From Candidatus Altimarinota bacterium (lineage in GTDB: Bacteria; Patescibacteriota; Gracilibacteria; UBA4473): a stretch of DNA of 64,000 nucleotides. The number at the start of each line of letters is the position of its first letter. Within the stretch, counting starts at the first letter, position 1. Below, piece after piece: positions 1,984 to 35,943 of the stretch. Where the stretch lies: contig JAHDHX010000007.1 of the NCBI GenBank assembly GCA_020631075.1, forward strand, positions 3,192 through 67,191, given 5' to 3'. The notes beneath the pieces were generated by a model, which saw nothing but the letters and a program-made list of their open reading frames with translations, ran no database searches and was not told the origin of the DNA. Position numbers and translations under genes: made by a program.

Positions 1984-3531
1984 TCACTTCCGCTTCATCA
2001 GCGGCAACAGCACCACATCCCGCAGGTTTGGCTGCCCCGTGATCAGCGCGACAAAACGGTCAATCCCCATCCCGAAGCCAGTCATGGGGGGCAGACCGTG
2101 CTCCATCGCGGTCAGGAAGGCTTCATCGACGTCCATGGCTTCGTCGTCACCCGCAGCGCGGGCGGCGGCTTGGGCTTCCAGTAGTTCACGTTGCACGCGT
2201 GGGTCGATCAGCTCACCGTATGAGTTCACGATCTCCCACCCCGCCACCACCAGCTGGTAGCAGTCCGCCGTGCCGTCAGCGTTGGGGCGGGCCAGCGGCT
2301 TGAGGTCAGACGGGTACCCAAACACAAACGTCGGGTGGACGATCTGCGGCCGAGCCGTCTTTTTATAGATGAAATCCAGCAAGTTCCCTCGGCCAGTTTT
2401 TTCGATCTCCTCTGGCGCCATCCCCAAGTGCGCCGCCTTCTCTTCGAGGTCAGCCCGGGTCGCGGCAAACATATCCAGCTCCGCATAGTCCGCCAACAGT
2501 TGGGCAAAAGTCACCCGCGGCCACTCCCCGCTGAAGTCCACCGTCTGCGGTTGGTCATCTTTGTCGAGCACCGTCACGCGATGGGTCTGCACCGCGGCCA
2601 GCATCACTTGTTTGATCATGGCTTCCGTCCAGGCCATGTTGTCCGACAGGTCGGCATAGGCCGCATACCACTCCAGCATAGTGAATTCTTGCAGATGAGA
2701 CGGGTCAGTCCCTTCATTACGAAAACACTTCCCGATCTCATACAACCGCTCTATGCCCCCCGCCATGATGATCTTATGGTCGATTTCGAGCGCAATCCGC
2801 AAGACAAACTCCGCGTCATACGCGTTGTGATGGGTGGCAAACACCCGCGCCATGGCCCCACCCGCCTGCGGCTGGAGGATGCGCGATTCAATCTCTTGGA
2901 AATTCTTTTCGTTGAGGAACCGCCGAATTTCATTGACGACCTTCGTGCGGACGAGAAACCGCTGAAACGTGTCAGGGTTTGTCGCCAGGTCCAAGTACCG
3001 CTGTCGGTAAAGCGTCTCACGATCCGTCACCCCGTGAAACTTCTCAGGCAGCGGGCGCAGCGCCTTCGACAGGGGGGTGACCTCTACCGCCATCAGGGAC
3101 GGCTCACCGTGCTTCGTCAGGAAAAATTCCCCCCGAAAGCCACAGAAATCCCCCAGATCGAGCAACCGCAAGAGGGTTTTGTGCTGGTCCCCCAGCACAC
3201 TGGCCGCCAGACACACTTGGAAGTCTCCTTCCGCATCACGGATCCGCAAAAAGGAGAGCTTGCCCATGTCACGCACGTTCATGATCCGCCCACAGACCGC
3301 CGTGTCGGTGCGCGGCTCCGCCATCACGTCTTTGGTGGGGCGGGGGTCATTCTCATGGATGTACTCACGCGCCAGCTCCGACGTGTGGGTGCGGTCGTAC
3401 CGACTAGCATACCCCCAGCCGTGCTCGGCCCACAGGGCCAGTTTGTTTTCGCGTTCCGCGATCAGTTTCCCTTCAGGCTTCTCGTGCAGGGGTGTCTGGT
3501 CGTTGGTTTCGGGCTGTGGGGTGGGGGGCAT
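1984..3531 (-). CDS. lysS: lysine--tRNA ligase, class II
   Basis: The translation has an OB-fold N-terminal region and class II core motifs (..FRNEGTDPSHLQEFTMLEWY.., ..GFGMGIDRFVALITG..). I chose the start at MPPTPQ (ATG 3531-3529) rather than the ORF-track start at 3693, because the upstream extension is Cys/Pro-rich and non-conserved. Confidence 0.9.
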   Translation of the reverse strand: MPPTPQPETNDQTPLHEKPEGKLIAERENKLALWAEHGWGYASRYDRTHTSELAREYIHENDPRPTKDVMAEPRTDTAVCGRIMNVRDMGKLSFLRIRDAEGDFQVCLAASVLGDQHKTLLRLLDLGDFCGFRGEFFLTKHGEPSLMAVEVTPLSKALRPLPEKFHGVTDRETLYRQRYLDLATNPDTFQRFLVRTKVVNEIRRFLNEKNFQEIESRILQPQAGGAMARVFATHHNAYDAEFVLRIALEIDHKIIMAGGIERLYEIGKCFRNEGTDPSHLQEFTMLEWYAAYADLSDNMAWTEAMIKQVMLAAVQTHRVTVLDKDDQPQTVDFSGEWPRVTFAQLLADYAELDMFAATRADLEEKAAHLGMAPEEIEKTGRGNLLDFIYKKTARPQIVHPTFVFGYPSDLKPLARPNADGTADCYQLVVAGWEIVNSYGELIDPRVQRELLEAQAAARAAGDDEAMDVDEAFLTAMEHGLPPMTGFGMGIDRFVALITGQPNLRDVVLLPLMKRK

Positions 3532-29414: not shown

Positions 29415-29437
29415 TCTGCCCTACAGTCTACAGCGTC

Positions 29438-30121
29438 ATGCTGTCTGTCAACGTCGTCGAACGCACCCTCCGCCTCCGGATCAACGATCGGGTCGGCACA
29501 GGGTTCGTCTACGACCACGACGGTCGGCAATACCTCCTGACGGCGCGGCACATCTGGGGTGAGTCACCGGGCCTGGGCTACATTGAGGTCTATCGCAACG
29601 CCCAGTGGGACCGCCTCGCAGCGGAGTCCCTCGGCCACTCGGGCGACATCCTCGTCTTGTCGGTCAATGACCGTCTCACCACCCGCGCGGCCGTGCCACC
29701 GGTGCACCGCGTGGGCATGGGGCAAGACGTCTACATTCTCGGCTTCCCCCTCAACCTCAAGTCCCAAGCCCACCACGCGGGCCACACCGTGCCCATCCCG
29801 TTCGTGAAGAAATCACTGCTCTCCGCCGCGCTCGAAACCCCCCCCAGCGGCCAGGTCCTCTACCTCGACGCTATCTTGGCGGGGGGTTTCAGCGGCGGGC
29901 CGGTGCTGGCCTACACACCGTCGGCGCCCGCCCCGCAGCGCTGGGCACTGCTGGGGCTGGTCTCGGGCTACATTTCCGAGCACCACCGCGGCACCGTCCG
30001 CACCCGCGACGGCGAATACTCCGTCCAGAGCCCCCGCAACACGGGCATCACCGTTGGGTGGTCACTGGCGCACGCCGTGCGGGTCATCCACCAGCGCCCT
30101 GAGGGGTTTGAGTTGGGGTGA
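29438..30121 (+). CDS. trypsin-like (S1/PA clan) serine peptidase
   Basis: From MLSVNVVERT.., the catalytic-triad candidates are LLTARHIW (His), DILVLSV (Asp) and GGFSGGPVL (Ser). The 219-codon N-terminal extension in the ORF track (antisense to miaA) was rejected. Confidence 0.7.
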   Translation: MLSVNVVERTLRLRINDRVGTGFVYDHDGRQYLLTARHIWGESPGLGYIEVYRNAQWDRLAAESLGHSGDILVLSVNDRLTTRAAVPPVHRVGMGQDVYILGFPLNLKSQAHHAGHTVPIPFVKKSLLSAALETPPSGQVLYLDAILAGGFSGGPVLAYTPSAPAPQRWALLGLVSGYISEHHRGTVRTRDGEYSVQSPRNTGITVGWSLAHAVRVIHQRPEGFELG

Positions 30122-30134
30122 CTGATAAATAAAA

Positions 30135-30164
30135 TTGAATTATATTGCACTAATGCTTTATAAT
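30135..30164 (+). promoter_or_regulatory. putative promoter of the 704-aa island gene
   Basis: TTGAAT-18 nt-TATAAT is present. The -10 element ends 6 nt before the ATG at 30171, which implies a leaderless or very short-leader mRNA. Confidence 0.45.
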
Positions 30165-30170
30165 TAATTT

Positions 30171-32285
30171 ATGGAAAAAGAGAGTAATGAAACCGAGAGT
30201 GGGCTGTTTTATTGTGAAGTGGAACTCAAACCAATTCCACCAAACATTTTAAGTAGAATACAAAAGAAATTTTTGAAATACTCGATTATTGATGGAAATA
30301 ACTTGAGTTATTCAACGTCATTTGCAGACGAAGATTATTATGATTTGTATAAATATTTTAAATCTCACGGACTGAGCGCTGTATTAACAGAAGAGCAAAA
30401 AAGCAAAATTACTAAAATTGAAAAGATACCTTTGAAGCAAATTGAATGGAAGAAACAATTTTTATCAAAAAAAGGTGAATGGTGGATAGAAAAAAATGGC
30501 ACAATTTATTGGGGAATAGACTCAGGCCTAAATTCAGCTTTATACAGTGCCATAAGTAGAAAAAGCATTGAAGAAGTTTTGAATTTAAACTTGTTTGAAG
30601 GTCAGATTTTAGTTCAATCTACGGTTACAAAAATTAAGAAATTCACAGAAGATTTATTATCAATTGATGAGTTAAAAATAGAAAAAAAGAGGAGGAAAAA
30701 TAAAGAAGGAAGTTCGAATGATCTAATGACAAAAAAAGGTGATTACTGGATTGAATTTGGAGGGAAAGTAATTATTTCTATTCCTTCCTCGGATACAGCT
30801 TTGTATCTGTTTCAAAATAGAAATAAATTATCAAAGATTATCCCAAATATTTGGAGAAATAAGACTATTCTAGTAGTTAAGAGAAAAGTGTTTGAGAAAT
30901 TGAAGGAAAATGTAAATCGATCTGAAATATATTTTGTGGGAAAAGATCTTGATGGTAATTTAATTGAAAATGGAAATCCTAAATCTGGTGTAGGTTTAAT
31001 CAAAATTCAGGAAATAATTGAAAAGAGAGATATTAAATTGACTCCAAGTCAGATTGAAAAATTAATAGGTATCTCTAGCGAATTACAAGATCTTTTTGAG
31101 TTATCCGAATTTCAAGAAAATTGGAGTACTGGAAAAATTAAATCCCACAATCCAGCACTATATAAACAGTCAAAAACATGGGCAAAAAAGCTCAAAACAG
31201 ATTTCACCGATTTTCTTTCTATTTTTGCTGGAATCGAAGACAGCAATTCAAAGTATTTGACCAGTGAGATGAAAGCTGAAAAAGACAGTAAAGAAAAAAT
31301 GCAAAGGATTACATCTGACTTAATCGAATGGTTGAAAATAAAACAGGTAGGAGAATGGTATATAAATGACATTCCAAATACTTCAGTGCGTTCCAAAATT
31401 CAAATTTTATCTAAAAACATAGCTGACAAATCATTATTTCTAGAAAGATTTCTCATCAAATACGCAGAAGAGTTATCAGAGAATGAGAACAAAAAAAATC
31501 AATTAAAAAGTGAAATCAAAGCATTACTCTCTTTGAATCCTGTGAAAAGCCTAAGTAAGGAGATACCGAAGAATAAAGAGATGTTAAAAGAAAGAACGAT
31601 TAAAGAAATCATATCAGTTTCTGGGTCTTCTTGGTCAATAAATACACTTTCTAAAGCCTCACAAACAATTCTTAAAAGATACCTAAAAACGTCAAACCAA
31701 GAGTTTAAGAAAATAGCAGGAGCAAAAAATTCTATAAATGAAAAAATTCTTTTTGAGGATTGGCTTAATGATAGCTTTGAGATACTGAAAACTTATAAAC
31801 CATACGGATACTCAAATTACATGATTAAGAAAAAATTTAGTGAATATACAATGAATCTAAAAGTAAAAAAACCCTCGGATATCGAGAAAGTAGATAGATC
31901 ACTTTATAAAGCAATTTGCAGGAACATTAGTCGTAAAGGGAAATCATTGTGGCTCTATTTAATATTAAACTCTTTACCAGAAGTGTTTGTAAATAAAAAG
32001 CGCTACAAGTTTACTTTAGAAAATGAAATTATTTATAGAGGTGAGGGAAGTGCCAAAAAACAAGGCCATAACGATCCAGAGCTATTTATAAATAAATTTA
32101 AAAAAAGTAGTGCACAAACGCCCGAAGAAATAATGATTGCTAATGAAAGTTTGGATTTACTGCGAAATGGCCTTTCTGTAGTAAGAAATAACCCTCAATA
32201 CGCCGATTTTGTTGCTCGATACGAAGAAGAGGGAGAAATAACCCCAGAACTGGTTTCGATATTGAAGGAAGTGTTAAAGATTTGA
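30171..32285 (+). CDS. hypothetical 704-aa Lys/Glu/Asn/Ile-rich protein encoded on a strongly AT-rich island
   Basis: Uninterrupted 704-codon ORF in sequence whose composition differs sharply from both flanks. It contains internally repeated segments (KKGEWWIEKNGTIYWGIDSGLNSALYSAI / KKGDYWIEFGGKVIISIPSSDTALYLF / VGEWYINDIPNTSVRSKIQIL / SGSSWSINTLSKASQTIL). No known domain was recognised. Confidence 0.75.
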   Translation: MEKESNETESGLFYCEVELKPIPPNILSRIQKKFLKYSIIDGNNLSYSTSFADEDYYDLYKYFKSHGLSAVLTEEQKSKITKIEKIPLKQIEWKKQFLSKKGEWWIEKNGTIYWGIDSGLNSALYSAISRKSIEEVLNLNLFEGQILVQSTVTKIKKFTEDLLSIDELKIEKKRRKNKEGSSNDLMTKKGDYWIEFGGKVIISIPSSDTALYLFQNRNKLSKIIPNIWRNKTILVVKRKVFEKLKENVNRSEIYFVGKDLDGNLIENGNPKSGVGLIKIQEIIEKRDIKLTPSQIEKLIGISSELQDLFELSEFQENWSTGKIKSHNPALYKQSKTWAKKLKTDFTDFLSIFAGIEDSNSKYLTSEMKAEKDSKEKMQRITSDLIEWLKIKQVGEWYINDIPNTSVRSKIQILSKNIADKSLFLERFLIKYAEELSENENKKNQLKSEIKALLSLNPVKSLSKEIPKNKEMLKERTIKEIISVSGSSWSINTLSKASQTILKRYLKTSNQEFKKIAGAKNSINEKILFEDWLNDSFEILKTYKPYGYSNYMIKKKFSEYTMNLKVKKPSDIEKVDRSLYKAICRNISRKGKSLWLYLILNSLPEVFVNKKRYKFTLENEIIYRGEGSAKKQGHNDPELFINKFKKSSAQTPEEIMIANESLDLLRNGLSVVRNNPQYADFVARYEEEGEITPELVSILKEVLKI

Positions 32286-32289
32286 TTTT

Positions 32290-32363
32290 TGGCATCCCTC
32301 CGTGGGATCGAACCACGAGTTTCCCCTTAGGAGGGGGACGTTTTTCCATTAAACTAGAGGGAC
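32290..32363 (-). tRNA. tRNA-Arg (anticodon CCT), CCA encoded
   Basis: The minus strand reads GTCCCTC-TA-GTTT-AATGGAA-AAAC-G-TCCCC-CTCCTAA-GGGGA-AACT-CGTGG-TTCGATC-CCACG-GAGGGAT-G-CCA. This gives a full cloverleaf with a canonical T-arm and anticodon loop CT-CCT-AA. Pair 1-72 is G-U. Confidence 0.85.
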
Positions 32364-33716: not shown

Positions 33717-35242
33717 CCCAGCGCCTACTGCTTTGGCTCTGTTTGACGTTTCTGCTTGTGCCGCTGCCACGCGCTAGCCACAGCCAGTCCCTCGGGCCCC
33801 AGATCGACCAACTCCTCGAGTCCTACTATTCAGGCACCTACGACCTCGTCATCGACCAAGCGCTCATCACGTCCAGTCAGTCAGGCTGGCAGCCCAGCTT
33901 CCGCCAGACCCCCGTCATCGACCAAGTCCAACGCCTCCGCACCCAGCTGGAGTCCGACCGCCGCGCCCTCACCCAGCTGGAAGCCACCGCCACCCGCACC
34001 GTCAGCGCCCTGCAAGCGGCCCGCGCCCAGTCGTCCGACGCCCAGCTGCGGCTGCAAGCCACCCAAGCCCAGATTACTATTTTAGAGGACAAGATCACCA
34101 AGCTCGAAACCGTCGCCGCCCAGTGGGAGGCCGCGCGCCAGACCACCACCCGCCAAGCGTATGAGGCCCGCCTTGTCCTGCGCGCCCTCGGGCGTGAAGC
34201 CGCCGCCGACAAACGTGACCAGTACCTCGCGCGTGAGAACCAACTCTGGACAGGCCAGTGGCAAGCCCTCGAGTGGCTGCTGGGGGAGGAGTCAATGGCC
34301 GACATCATCGAGCGCGAACGCCGCGCCCAGTGGGCCCGCGCCAGTGCCCGCGCTTCGTTGGCAGCCGTGGGCAACATCCGTGCTAATCTCGAACAAGCCG
34401 AAATCCGCCAGAGCCTCTACGCCCAGCGGGTCACCCAGCTCGAATCCCAGCTGACTACCGCTCGGGCAGAGCTCCAGCAGGCGCTCACCACGCAAAACCA
34501 AACCGTCACCGCCAGCCGCCAGACCACGCAGCAGCTGGAGTCACGCCTGGCCGCCCAGTCCCAGCAGCTTACGACCCAGCAGGCCACCACCCGCCAGACC
34601 GCCCAGCAACTCACCGAAGCAGAAACCACCGTCGACACCACTGGGCAAGACGTCCCCACTGACATCCGTCTGGCGGCCGTCGGCCAGTTTGTGCCCCCAG
34701 TGGCAGGCCCTGCCCCGCTCACCGCCACCTTCCGCGACCCCACCTACGCGGCGGACTTCGGCGTCGACCATAATGGCCTCGACATCGCCCTGACCGTCGG
34801 CACCCCTGTGCTGGCCAGCCGCGACGGTATAGTGCAGGAGGTCAAAGCCGACGGCACCGACTATAATCTCACTCTCCAGCACGCAGACGACTGGTTTACC
34901 GTCTACGGCCACCTGTCCGAGACATTCGTCCTCCCGGGGGACCTCATCACCGCTGGCACCCCCGTGGGGCGCAGCGGCGGCGCAGGCGGCGGCCACAGCA
35001 CGGGCCCTCACCTCCATTTTGAAGTCATCCATCAGGGGCTCTACCTCGACCCCCTGCAGGTGCTCACGGGGTTCGACTATTCACTGGCAGGCCCAGACGC
35101 CCTCGTCCCCAGCCTCGCCACGCCCCCCACCCCCACGCTTGACGCCCCTGCCGACGACTCCACTCCCCAGAGTGGGGGAGTCACCTCCGCCAGCTCGCCC
35201 GCAGACACTTTCCCAGAGATCGACCTTCCCTTTTATGATTGA
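33713..35242 (+). CDS. M23-family (LytM-type) peptidoglycan endopeptidase with a long Gln/Ala-rich coiled-coil
   Basis: The C-terminal domain has ..DHNGLDIALTVGTPVLASRDGIV.. and ..GPHLHFEV.. (HxxxD / HxH metal ligands). A signal/TM segment is present at the N-terminus. Confidence 0.8.
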   Translation: MTQRLLLWLCLTFLLVPLPRASHSQSLGPQIDQLLESYYSGTYDLVIDQALITSSQSGWQPSFRQTPVIDQVQRLRTQLESDRRALTQLEATATRTVSALQAARAQSSDAQLRLQATQAQITILEDKITKLETVAAQWEAARQTTTRQAYEARLVLRALGREAAADKRDQYLARENQLWTGQWQALEWLLGEESMADIIERERRAQWARASARASLAAVGNIRANLEQAEIRQSLYAQRVTQLESQLTTARAELQQALTTQNQTVTASRQTTQQLESRLAAQSQQLTTQQATTRQTAQQLTEAETTVDTTGQDVPTDIRLAAVGQFVPPVAGPAPLTATFRDPTYAADFGVDHNGLDIALTVGTPVLASRDGIVQEVKADGTDYNLTLQHADDWFTVYGHLSETFVLPGDLITAGTPVGRSGGAGGGHSTGPHLHFEVIHQGLYLDPLQVLTGFDYSLAGPDALVPSLATPPTPTLDAPADDSTPQSGGVTSASSPADTFPEIDLPFYD

Positions 35243-35267
35243 CTACAATGAAAATATAATTTAAAAT
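35239..35267 (+). promoter_or_regulatory. near-consensus sigma-70 promoter of the 163-aa cassette
   Basis: TTGACT (35239-44)-17 nt-TAAAAT (35262-67). The -35 element overlaps the M23 peptidase stop codon. Confidence 0.55.
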
Positions 35268-35295
35268 TAGAATAATTCATAAACATCACCTAAAT

Positions 35296-35787
35296 ATGTC
35301 AGAAGAAGTAACAAATATCGATTACGCTCTCGAAAAAGGATTTACCCCAGAGGTGGTAAATTTCCCAGACGGAACGAAGTTCATCAACGACTTGAGTGGC
35401 TGGACTACGGAGCAAATTGACCTTATGACCAAACTTTCACCAATGCAGCTGAAGCTTCACCATGCGTATCAAGAATATTTTGCATTGATAAATAAAATGA
35501 AGCAACTATTGGATGAACGTGGATTCCAGACAACAATTGGTTCTGCCCCAGCTGATGAGTACGCTCAATTTCTAAAAAGTTTGCAGCCAGAAACTCAGCG
35601 CATTATAACCACAGGAGGAGGCAATGGACTTATGTTTATGGCAGCAAGTGCTGATAACTTTAATCAAATAATTGATACTAAGTTTAGAAAAGAAATGGAT
35701 GAAAAACAATTAGCAGAAAGCTTAAAGTCAGCGGAGAGTGAATGTGATACAATCAGAAAAATATTGCACGTGATTCAAAATTATTAA
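35296..35787 (+). CDS. hypothetical 163-aa protein on a small AT-rich cassette
   Basis: Clean ORF with its own promoter and a downstream inverted-repeat structure. No motif was recognised. Confidence 0.6.
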   Translation: MSEEVTNIDYALEKGFTPEVVNFPDGTKFINDLSGWTTEQIDLMTKLSPMQLKLHHAYQEYFALINKMKQLLDERGFQTTIGSAPADEYAQFLKSLQPETQRIITTGGGNGLMFMAASADNFNQIIDTKFRKEMDEKQLAESLKSAESECDTIRKILHVIQNY

Positions 35788-35943
35788 GAAGTAAGCATCA
35801 CAGAAAAGACAAAAATGATGAAAAAAACAGAAGTGTTGTTTCATGTTTTGCTTTTTTGGAACAAAAAAGAAAAAGCAAAATGAGTTGAGGGTTTTACCCT
35901 CGCTAGACAGAATACCCTCAGAGGGCTATGCTTACTTCTGAAT
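35783..35943. repeat. inverted repeat pair TTAAGAAGTAAGCAT / ATGCTTACTTCTGAA enclosing about 130 nt with two internal hairpins
   Basis: AGAAGTAAGCAT (35787-98) is the exact reverse complement of ATGCTTACTTCT (35928-39). The interior contains hairpins TTTTGCTTTTT..AAAAAGCAAAA and GAGGGT-TTT-ACCCTC. Confidence 0.6.

Follow-up and report, generated by a model that had tools for sequence, protein, structure and literature searches.

How does a gene of 30% G+C content (GC), with an intact reading frame and no detectable relative, come to stand between a protease gene and a tRNA gene in bacterial DNA of 64-70% GC? The question is raised by positions 30122-32289 of a 64,000-nucleotide stretch from Candidatus Altimarinota bacterium (Patescibacteriota; Gracilibacteria; UBA4473), hereafter the window, which corresponds to positions 3,192 to 67,191 of contig JAHDHX010000007.1 in assembly GCA_020631075.1. 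The window lies on a 74-kb contig (C49; C labels denote contigs) of a genome (G000) of 1.46 Mb in 50 contigs, which is 95.9% complete with 0.74% contamination and has a mean GC of 0.573; a GC-rich relative in two contigs is referred to as G003. The gene encodes a protein of 704 amino acids (aa), P0001. The island that it occupies has a foreign composition, an intact coding frame and an orphan product; tRNA 3' ends are statistically enriched in such DNA, and neither a recombinase nor attachment (att) sites accompany the gene. Our preferred reading, to which we assign a probability of roughly 0.65, is that the island is a self-contained cassette of promoter and gene that reached a tRNA-tip hot spot recently.

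A single-gene island of foreign composition

The first-pass annotation, a reading of the sequence made without database searches, had placed abrupt changes of composition at 30122 and about 32290, and the GC content in 300-bp windows bears out both: it drops from 0.70 (29750-30049) to 0.29-0.31 (30200 to about 32150) and returns to 0.64 from 32300 onwards. Overall, the segment has a GC of 26-33%, as compared with 64-70% in its flanks. The gene within it has a GC of 0.30 and a GC at third codon positions (GC3) of 0.26, as compared with 0.65-0.71 and 0.75-0.87, respectively, in the five adjacent genes. The segment is a compositionally foreign, single-gene island. Its left edge is the TGA stop codon of a native serine protease gene, its right edge is the 3' tip of a native tRNA-Arg(CCT) gene, and the gap between the two, which opens after the protease stop at 30121, is filled entirely by foreign DNA. 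An open reading frame (ORF) scan, ARAGORN and Rfam agree with the earlier description of one 704-codon ORF, whose TGA stop and the CCA end of the convergent tRNA gene are 4 nt apart. The possibility that the tRNA is itself part of the insert was ruled out by its GC (0.54, within the range of 0.51-0.67 spanned by the 37 tRNAs of the genome) and by its resemblance to the tRNA-Arg(CCT) genes of relatives, with which it shares 85-93% identity.

P0001 is a real coding frame, since it is free of internal stops over 704 codons while each of the remaining five frames contains 22-80, and an in-frame TAA 6 nt upstream of the ATG makes its start unambiguous. The near absence of amelioration (GC3 of 0.26 in a genome at about 0.8), together with the intact frame, points to a recent arrival or to selection. 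An old or decayed insertion, which had been suggested earlier, fits poorly with both features; the DNA looks recent even if its vehicle is gone.

A leaderless-type promoter, TTGAAT-18-TATAAT, had also been described upstream of the gene, and the site is indeed present (Table 1). Promoter-like matches as such do not exceed chance in this AT-rich DNA (9 vs 6.8 +/- 3.0 in shuffled sequences), though the spacing recurs: ten of the 79 non-overlapping low-GC ORFs of at least 100 aa in the genome have a -10-like box that ends 6-8 nt before the start, as compared with about one per other distance bin. A Shine-Dalgarno-like core precedes only four of the 79, and to judge from the layout of these ORFs the AT-rich genes imported into this genome seem, as a rule, to be expressed without leaders. 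Transcription of P0001 probably begins at its ATG and gives a leaderless mRNA. It would proceed convergently into the tRNA gene, in which the antisense of the anticodon arm, followed by a run of T, could end it; this hairpin is the sole candidate terminator for the transcript in a consensus scan.

The island has many counterparts in the genome. Merged patches below 40% GC number 146 and make up 7.4% of the genome length; the P0001 island, being one of these, is not special: it represents, in its most extreme form, something common in the genome rather than a singular event. Most relatives in the family are low in GC (0.28-0.47 around their tRNA-Arg(CCT) genes); G003, which is GC-rich, has the same mosaic. 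Pfam and PADLOC searches of the 57 ORFs with a GC below 0.40 revealed matches of accessory and defence type, namely HEPN_AbiU2 (2), DUF3800 (2), a type I restriction-modification (R-M) S subunit, a KAP NTPase/PifA, mad5, Schlafen/SLFN_AlbA_2, T5orf172, Peptidase_M78, a nucleotidyltransferase, leucine-rich repeat (LRR) proteins and a sigma factor. Judged by these matches, the annotatable AT-rich patches are rich in accessory and defence genes.

A second AT-rich promoter-plus-ORF cassette is found in the window at 35239-35943, 3 kb from the P0001 island. It begins at the stop codon of an M23 peptidase gene and encodes a 163-aa orphan (GC 0.38) for which Pfam gives only a match of the weakest kind (E 0.18).

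Table 1. Features of the P0001 locus and serine-recombinase genes elsewhere in the genome (window coordinates unless a contig is named)
Feature	Position	Strand	Remarks
Trypsin_2-type serine protease gene	29435..30121	+	Native GC-rich flank; Pfam PF13365, E = 3.9e-10; GC 0.675, GC3 0.865
AT-rich left junction and cassette 5' region, 49 nt	30122..30170	+	Stops in all three frames (TGACTGATAAATAA); contains the promoter-like site; switch in GC
Sigma-70-like promoter, TTGAAT-18-TATAAT	30135..30164	+	10/12 match; -10 box ends 6 nt before the ATG; without Shine-Dalgarno sequence; leaderless layout; putative function
Orphan ORF P0001, 704 aa	30171..32285	+	Rich in Lys/Leu/Ile/Ser/Glu; net charge +25; without membrane segment or signal peptide
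Two tandem repeats of about 88 aa	30399..30926	+	aa 77-164 and 164-252; 26% identical; common pattern KKG(E/D)(W/Y)WIE..G....I.S...ALY
Resident tRNA-Arg(CCT), CCA encoded	32290..32363	-	ARAGORN; Rfam 57 bits; its 3' tip bounds the island on the right
Terminator-like hairpin and T-run	32319..32339	+	Antisense of tRNA anticodon arm and D-loop; consensus scan; putative
Serine-recombinase genes	C7:17347-20145; C7:175993-178051; C35:21527-22822 and 29569-30238		

The orphan protein P0001

P0001 is rich in lysine (14%), in leucine, isoleucine and serine (10% each) and in glutamate (10%), and contains only three histidines and two cysteines. A check of its sequence for catalytic motifs revealed neither a P-loop nor an R-x(4-6)-H motif. 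It has no membrane segment or signal peptide (the highest Kyte-Doolittle mean over 19 residues is 0.97), and the surface function that had been proposed is for this reason disfavoured. At least four internal repeats had also been claimed, of which only two, in tandem near the amino terminus, are statistically supported (aa 77-164 and 164-252): their self-alignment scores 70, as compared with a mean of 26 in shuffled sequences (sd 5.3, max 52). A hidden Markov model (HMM) of the pair detects no additional copy within P0001, and the other proposed repeats score below zero. Likewise, the supposedly helix-turn-helix-like carboxy terminus finds no support, as the last 182 residues match none of the Pfam families at E <= 10. 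AlphaFold2, run without homologues, gave models with a mean pLDDT of 35.4 for the whole protein and 44.7 for the repeat pair, which is too low for use; in these low-confidence models each repeat is a beta-hairpin followed by helices and the carboxy-terminal half is helical.

The orphan status of P0001 was established in searches that together covered about 15 billion public protein sequences. A word search of a 5.8-billion-cluster database and a full phmmer search over 1.84 billion representatives each returned only P0001 itself, and a profile of the two repeats found nothing in the big protein database. The whole protein has no match in Pfam, PADLOC or NCBIfam and two weak ones in PHROGs (E about 0.1); six overlapping segments gave only weak matches to Pfam at E <= 10 (E about 0.2), and none of the defence HMMs of PADLOC-DB 2.0 matches at E <= 1. 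Matches to PDB sequences are at the level of chance (E of 0.14 or more), and neither tblastn against GenBank phages and PLSDB plasmids nor a search of IMG/VR returned a match. Thirty relatives and 400 genomes of the class contain no credible homologue, the two matches at E <= 0.01 being within chance expectation. The statement that no known domain is recognizable thus stands for all of the libraries searched, with only self-matches in the sequence collections, and no confident match to a housekeeping or any other family was found. The relatives are without synteny at the tRNA-Arg locus.

Several leads from the sequence itself were followed. The GEWWIE..GTIYWGID pattern is reminiscent of GIY-YIG nucleases; this candidate was rejected, as there is no such Pfam match at E <= 10, an HMM built from 30 GIY-YIG domains of relatives finds nothing, and hhalign gives a probability of 2%. 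A degenerate serine recombinase was ruled out by the lack of similarity to the large serine recombinases (LSRs) of the genome. The repeat module may weakly resemble the last 60 residues, at the carboxy-terminal end of the Toprim domain, of a very large unannotated Topo VI-A/Spo11-like family of proteins of about 290 aa (hhalign probability 10% with one sequence and 20.5% with a profile of 32 sequences), and the invariant W-E-V-D-A-L of that family is not retained in repeat 2. A 294-aa ORF from another genome (G012:C106; L002 802-1686) has weak, correctly ordered matches to TP6A_N and the TOP6A/Spo11 Toprim domain and is adjoined by an antirepressor-like ORF. Its family has at least 7,918 homologues at E <= 1e-5; the matches listed carry no precomputed Pfam domain and are named only 'hypothetical' or 'uncharacterized protein'.

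The divergence of the internal duplication (26% identity) would imply a long coding history in an unsampled donor pool, rather than a chance or de novo ORF, and P0001 is in this sense probably a long-evolved protein. The product would be cytoplasmic and strongly basic, with a duplicated amino-terminal module of about 88 aa, and we infer that it is a non-enzymatic or nucleic-acid-binding accessory protein. Its most likely role would be in defence, exclusion or mobile-element maintenance. The defence or exclusion function suggested earlier is plausible in the context of this genome; PADLOC gives it no match. More specifically, P0001 may be a stand-alone anti-phage defence or exclusion protein, a single gene of the abortive-infection type, and this we consider rather doubtful. 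The annotatable islets of the genome are rich in AbiU2 HEPN, PifA/KAP, mad5, R-M S subunit and Schlafen/AlbA_2 proteins, and a promoter of its own and a single large, basic, cytoplasmic product would suit such a system. The argument is one of guilt by association, however, and the lack of PADLOC and Pfam matches, the weakness of the two PHROGs matches, the missing catalytic motif and the few histidines and cysteines all speak against it. Successful defence genes usually show spread, and P0001, being without relatives, gives no sign of any. Otherwise, P0001 may be a nucleic-acid-binding protein of a mobile element.

tRNA 3' ends, serine recombinases and the route of insertion

The position of the P0001 stop codon had been called a classic integration position, and the flanks of tRNA genes in two genomes agree with this. 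In G000, the 300 bp beyond the 3' end have a GC below 40% at five of 36 tRNAs (Val-TAC, Trp, Ser-GGA, Leu-TAG and Arg-CCT; binomial p = 0.02), as compared with none of 37 5' flanks and 4.5% of random windows. AT-rich flanks in G003 number four of 30 on the 3' side and one of 30 on the 5' side, the spacer of the lone 5' case being also counted on the 3' side. When both genomes are pooled, the counts are 9/66 and 1/67, respectively (Fisher p = 0.008), and the hot spot is real, the position at the tRNA 3' end being meaningful to a moderate degree. In addition, directly 3' of tRNA-Arg(CCT) in G003 lies an unrelated AT-rich (38% GC) ORF of 160 aa with an amino-terminal hydrophobic, signal-like segment (G003:C1:604012-604701; L027 8013-8702). 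The same hot spot holds different cargo in the relative.

A terminator hairpin follows the CCA directly at tRNAs Trp, Glu and Arg-TCG and is absent at tRNA-Arg(CCT), because the foreign ORF occupies its place. This suggests that the boundary of the insertion is the tip of the tRNA itself. Two further islets at tRNA 3' ends were noted by eye: in one, an ORF of 219 aa (C5:206369-207028) runs towards tRNA-Glu(TTC) and stops 36 nt short of the tip; in the other, a ribbon-helix-helix-like ORF of 77 aa (C5:210678-210911) lies beyond tRNA-Val(TAC).

Only one tyrosine recombinase is encoded in the genome, and its gene is not on the contig of the window. Serine-recombinase genes number six; none is farther than about 9 kb from the 3' side of a tRNA, the tRNAs concerned being Trp, Arg-TCG and Leu-TAG. 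Copies of the motif GT[AT]CTAGACCC number six in 1.46 Mb and always mark the ends of LSR/tRNA elements; the sole copy in the window is at 1927. The clearest element is found at tRNA-Leu(TAG), where 22 kb of AT-rich DNA (C35:7880-30494) are bounded on both sides by a direct repeat of about 120 nt, the first 7 nt of which are the last 7 of the tRNA. The cargo comprises an LSR, a 901-aa DNA methyltransferase-like ORF, a Schlafen/AlbA_2 protein, a T5orf172 protein and a 2074-aa ORF, and the last 123 codons of the recombinase are duplicated next to the tRNA at 98% identity. In the window, positions 1927-1984 (C49:5118-5175) hold the end motif GTACTAGACCC followed, at 1938-1984, by a 46-nt copy (42/46) of the 3' tip of tRNA-Trp and its terminator. 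The tRNA-Trp gene itself is on C7 (23208-23281) and adjoins a 23-kb AT-rich region that reaches the contig end; the ends of C49 and C7 probably join, in which case tRNA-Trp would carry at least 28 kb of a serine-recombinase element or array. Two inverted fragments that resemble T-arms, TGGGAATCGAACCCCA and TGGGATTCGAAC, are also seen about 60 nt past the terminators of tRNA-Trp (C7, about 23140) and tRNA-Arg(TCG) (about 175020), and may be remnants of tRNA-like att sites on the opposite strand.

If the island is a recently acquired cassette, as we prefer to read it, a promoter and one gene would have been wedged precisely between the native protease stop and the CCA at the 3' end of the native tRNA-Arg(CCT). 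The cassette would belong to a genome-wide population of AT-rich accessory islets located preferentially at tRNA 3' ends. Equivalent sites elsewhere in the genome hold LSR elements and this one cargo only; the vehicle may have been lost, or the cassette may have been inserted in trans or via another route.

Several observations weigh against the acquisition of such a cassette at a tRNA hot spot. This part of C49 contains no recombinase (PF00589 or PF00239), and P0001 has no similarity to the LSRs of the genome. The 15-nt tip of tRNA-Arg(CCT) has no copy within three mismatches near the island, there is no useful direct repeat, the GT[AT]CTAGACCC end motif is missing, and no DNA is shared between this and any other island. 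The route of integration is unproven for these reasons. The first-pass annotation had seen neither an integrase gene nor a duplicated tRNA segment, and had pointed to a computational search for att-like repeats; that search, too, came back empty at the P0001 island, and since the same search found repeats at tRNA-Leu(TAG) and tRNA-Trp in this genome, the negative at tRNA-Arg(CCT) is meaningful. The nearest genomes are those of other genera, without synteny at the locus; no close relative or metagenome variant was found, and the available genomes and metagenomes contain no syntenic empty site. The flanking protease, used as a query, retrieved nothing from genome or metagenome contigs, and the exact 3' half of the tRNA nothing from metagenome contigs. 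The tRNA enrichment is modest (p of about 0.01-0.02), at GC thresholds of our own choosing. As to function, the case for P0001 comes from the statistics of its neighbourhood, with no PADLOC match and no usable structure beside it.

The cassette might have reached the locus by either of two routes, both of which we hold to be possible at well below even odds. One is that it is a recombinase-orphaned unit of an LSR system that builds arrays at tRNA tips, the LSR having acted in cis and been lost later, or having acted in trans. The six LSR genes next to three other tRNAs, the att-bounded element at tRNA-Leu(TAG) and the tRNA-Trp-tip remnant in this same window are all consistent with this, as is the start of the island 4 nt past the CCA tip, where other tRNAs have their terminator hairpin. 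The crossover sites of serine integrases can be as short as 2 bp, and so the missing long repeat is compatible with it as well. However, the island has no end motif, tRNA-tip copy, LSR remnant or DNA similarity to the LSR elements of the genome, and P0001 fills it so completely that half-sites would fit only inside the coding sequence. The other route needs no specific site: DNA would have been taken up and inserted by illegitimate or flank-homology recombination, the convergent gene ends being merely permissive. Most of the roughly 146 AT-rich patches are not at tRNAs, the cassette at 35239-35943 begins at the stop codon of a protein gene 3 kb away, and the P0001 island lacks att features, as would be expected in this case. 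It accounts less well for the asymmetry between tRNA 3' and 5' flanks in two genomes, for the different cargo of G003 at the same tRNA-Arg(CCT) and for a boundary exactly at the CCA tip. An integron gene cassette was rejected as a candidate: P0001 has a promoter-like site of its own, the only tyrosine recombinase is on another contig, and the 4 nt between stop codon and tRNA leave no room for attC. A combined proposal, that P0001 is the founder of a new single-protein family for defence or exclusion and that the serine recombinases of the genome place its cassette at tRNA tips in trans, we regard as improbable.

Explanations in which nothing was acquired fare worse. That P0001 is an ancestral, fast-evolving native gene with an aberrant composition is highly unlikely. 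Most genomes of the family are low in GC (0.28-0.47 at their tRNA-Arg loci), so that an AT-rich state could be ancestral, but neither 30 relatives nor 400 genomes of the class have a homologue, synteny lends no support, and a resident gene should have drifted in the same way as its neighbours, which have reached a GC3 of 0.75-0.87. An assembly chimera, in which metagenomic DNA from a low-GC organism became spliced into a high-GC contig by way of a conserved tRNA, has almost no likelihood. Conserved tRNA genes can bridge assemblies and the genome is a draft of 50 contigs; on the other hand, host-type DNA lies on both sides of the island within a 74-kb contig, the left junction is a protease stop codon that offers no shared sequence for bridging, and the tRNA-Arg(CCT) genes of other genomes reach, at their closest, only 75-93% identity. 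The same mosaic, moreover, occurs about 146 times here and also in the two-contig G003, and the contamination estimate is 0.74%.

Significance and comparison with known systems

Taken by itself, the islet is an ordinary product of horizontal transfer with uninterpretable cargo, and its value is that of one data point in a genome-level picture of sharply bounded AT-rich accessory units, often with a single gene, that are clustered at tRNA 3' tips and are in part linked to LSRs. If cargo-only units were placed in trans by LSRs, this would amount to a simple means of gene capture in organisms with otherwise, it seems, little mobile machinery; if, in addition, P0001 founded a new family, ultra-small bacteria would possess a tRNA-anchored system for collecting cassettes, an analogue of the integron. 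P0001 itself is large, intact and evidently selected, and comes from a gene pool not sampled by about 15 billion public proteins, which suggests that much accessory sequence space has yet to be seen.

The kind of island is already known, being an islet at a tRNA hot spot with an ORFan as its cargo. Genomic islands that contain ORFan genes were reportedly treated by Hsiao et al. in 2005. The P0001 islet shares with such cases a long intact ORF, the lack of a detectable homologue and a compositionally atypical island, and would be a textbook example except for its size (704 aa) and internal duplication. A second likeness is to LSR integrative elements and cassette arrays of the SCCmec/Ccr type, among which the ssrA islands of Dehalococcoides with DsiB are said to be counted. 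LSR genes with att-like repeats are found here at three tRNA 3' flanks, and the P0001 islet takes the same position at a fourth tRNA; it differs in having no LSR, att repeat, conserved end motif or shared sequence.

The tRNA islands of Prochlorococcus that are remodelled by tycheposons (bioRxiv 10.1101/2020.12.28.424599) likewise carry flexible cargo of odd composition on the 3' side of particular tRNAs in a small genome, with degenerate, integrase-less remnants beside active elements and defence functions in the cargo. Tycheposons, however, rely for the most part on tyrosine recombinases, and partial copies of the tRNA remain behind, whereas the present genome has one tyrosine and six serine recombinases and the P0001 islet has neither a partial tRNA nor a hallmark gene. 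The genomic islands of Patescibacteria make up as much as 13% of the genome (PMC12455944), as compared with 7.4% here, and also carry R-M and other defence genes. Those islands were delineated with island-prediction tools and mostly in low-GC genomes, whereas the host studied here is GC-rich, the contrast between island and surroundings is extreme (30% vs 65-70%), and many of the units are single cassettes of promoter and gene.

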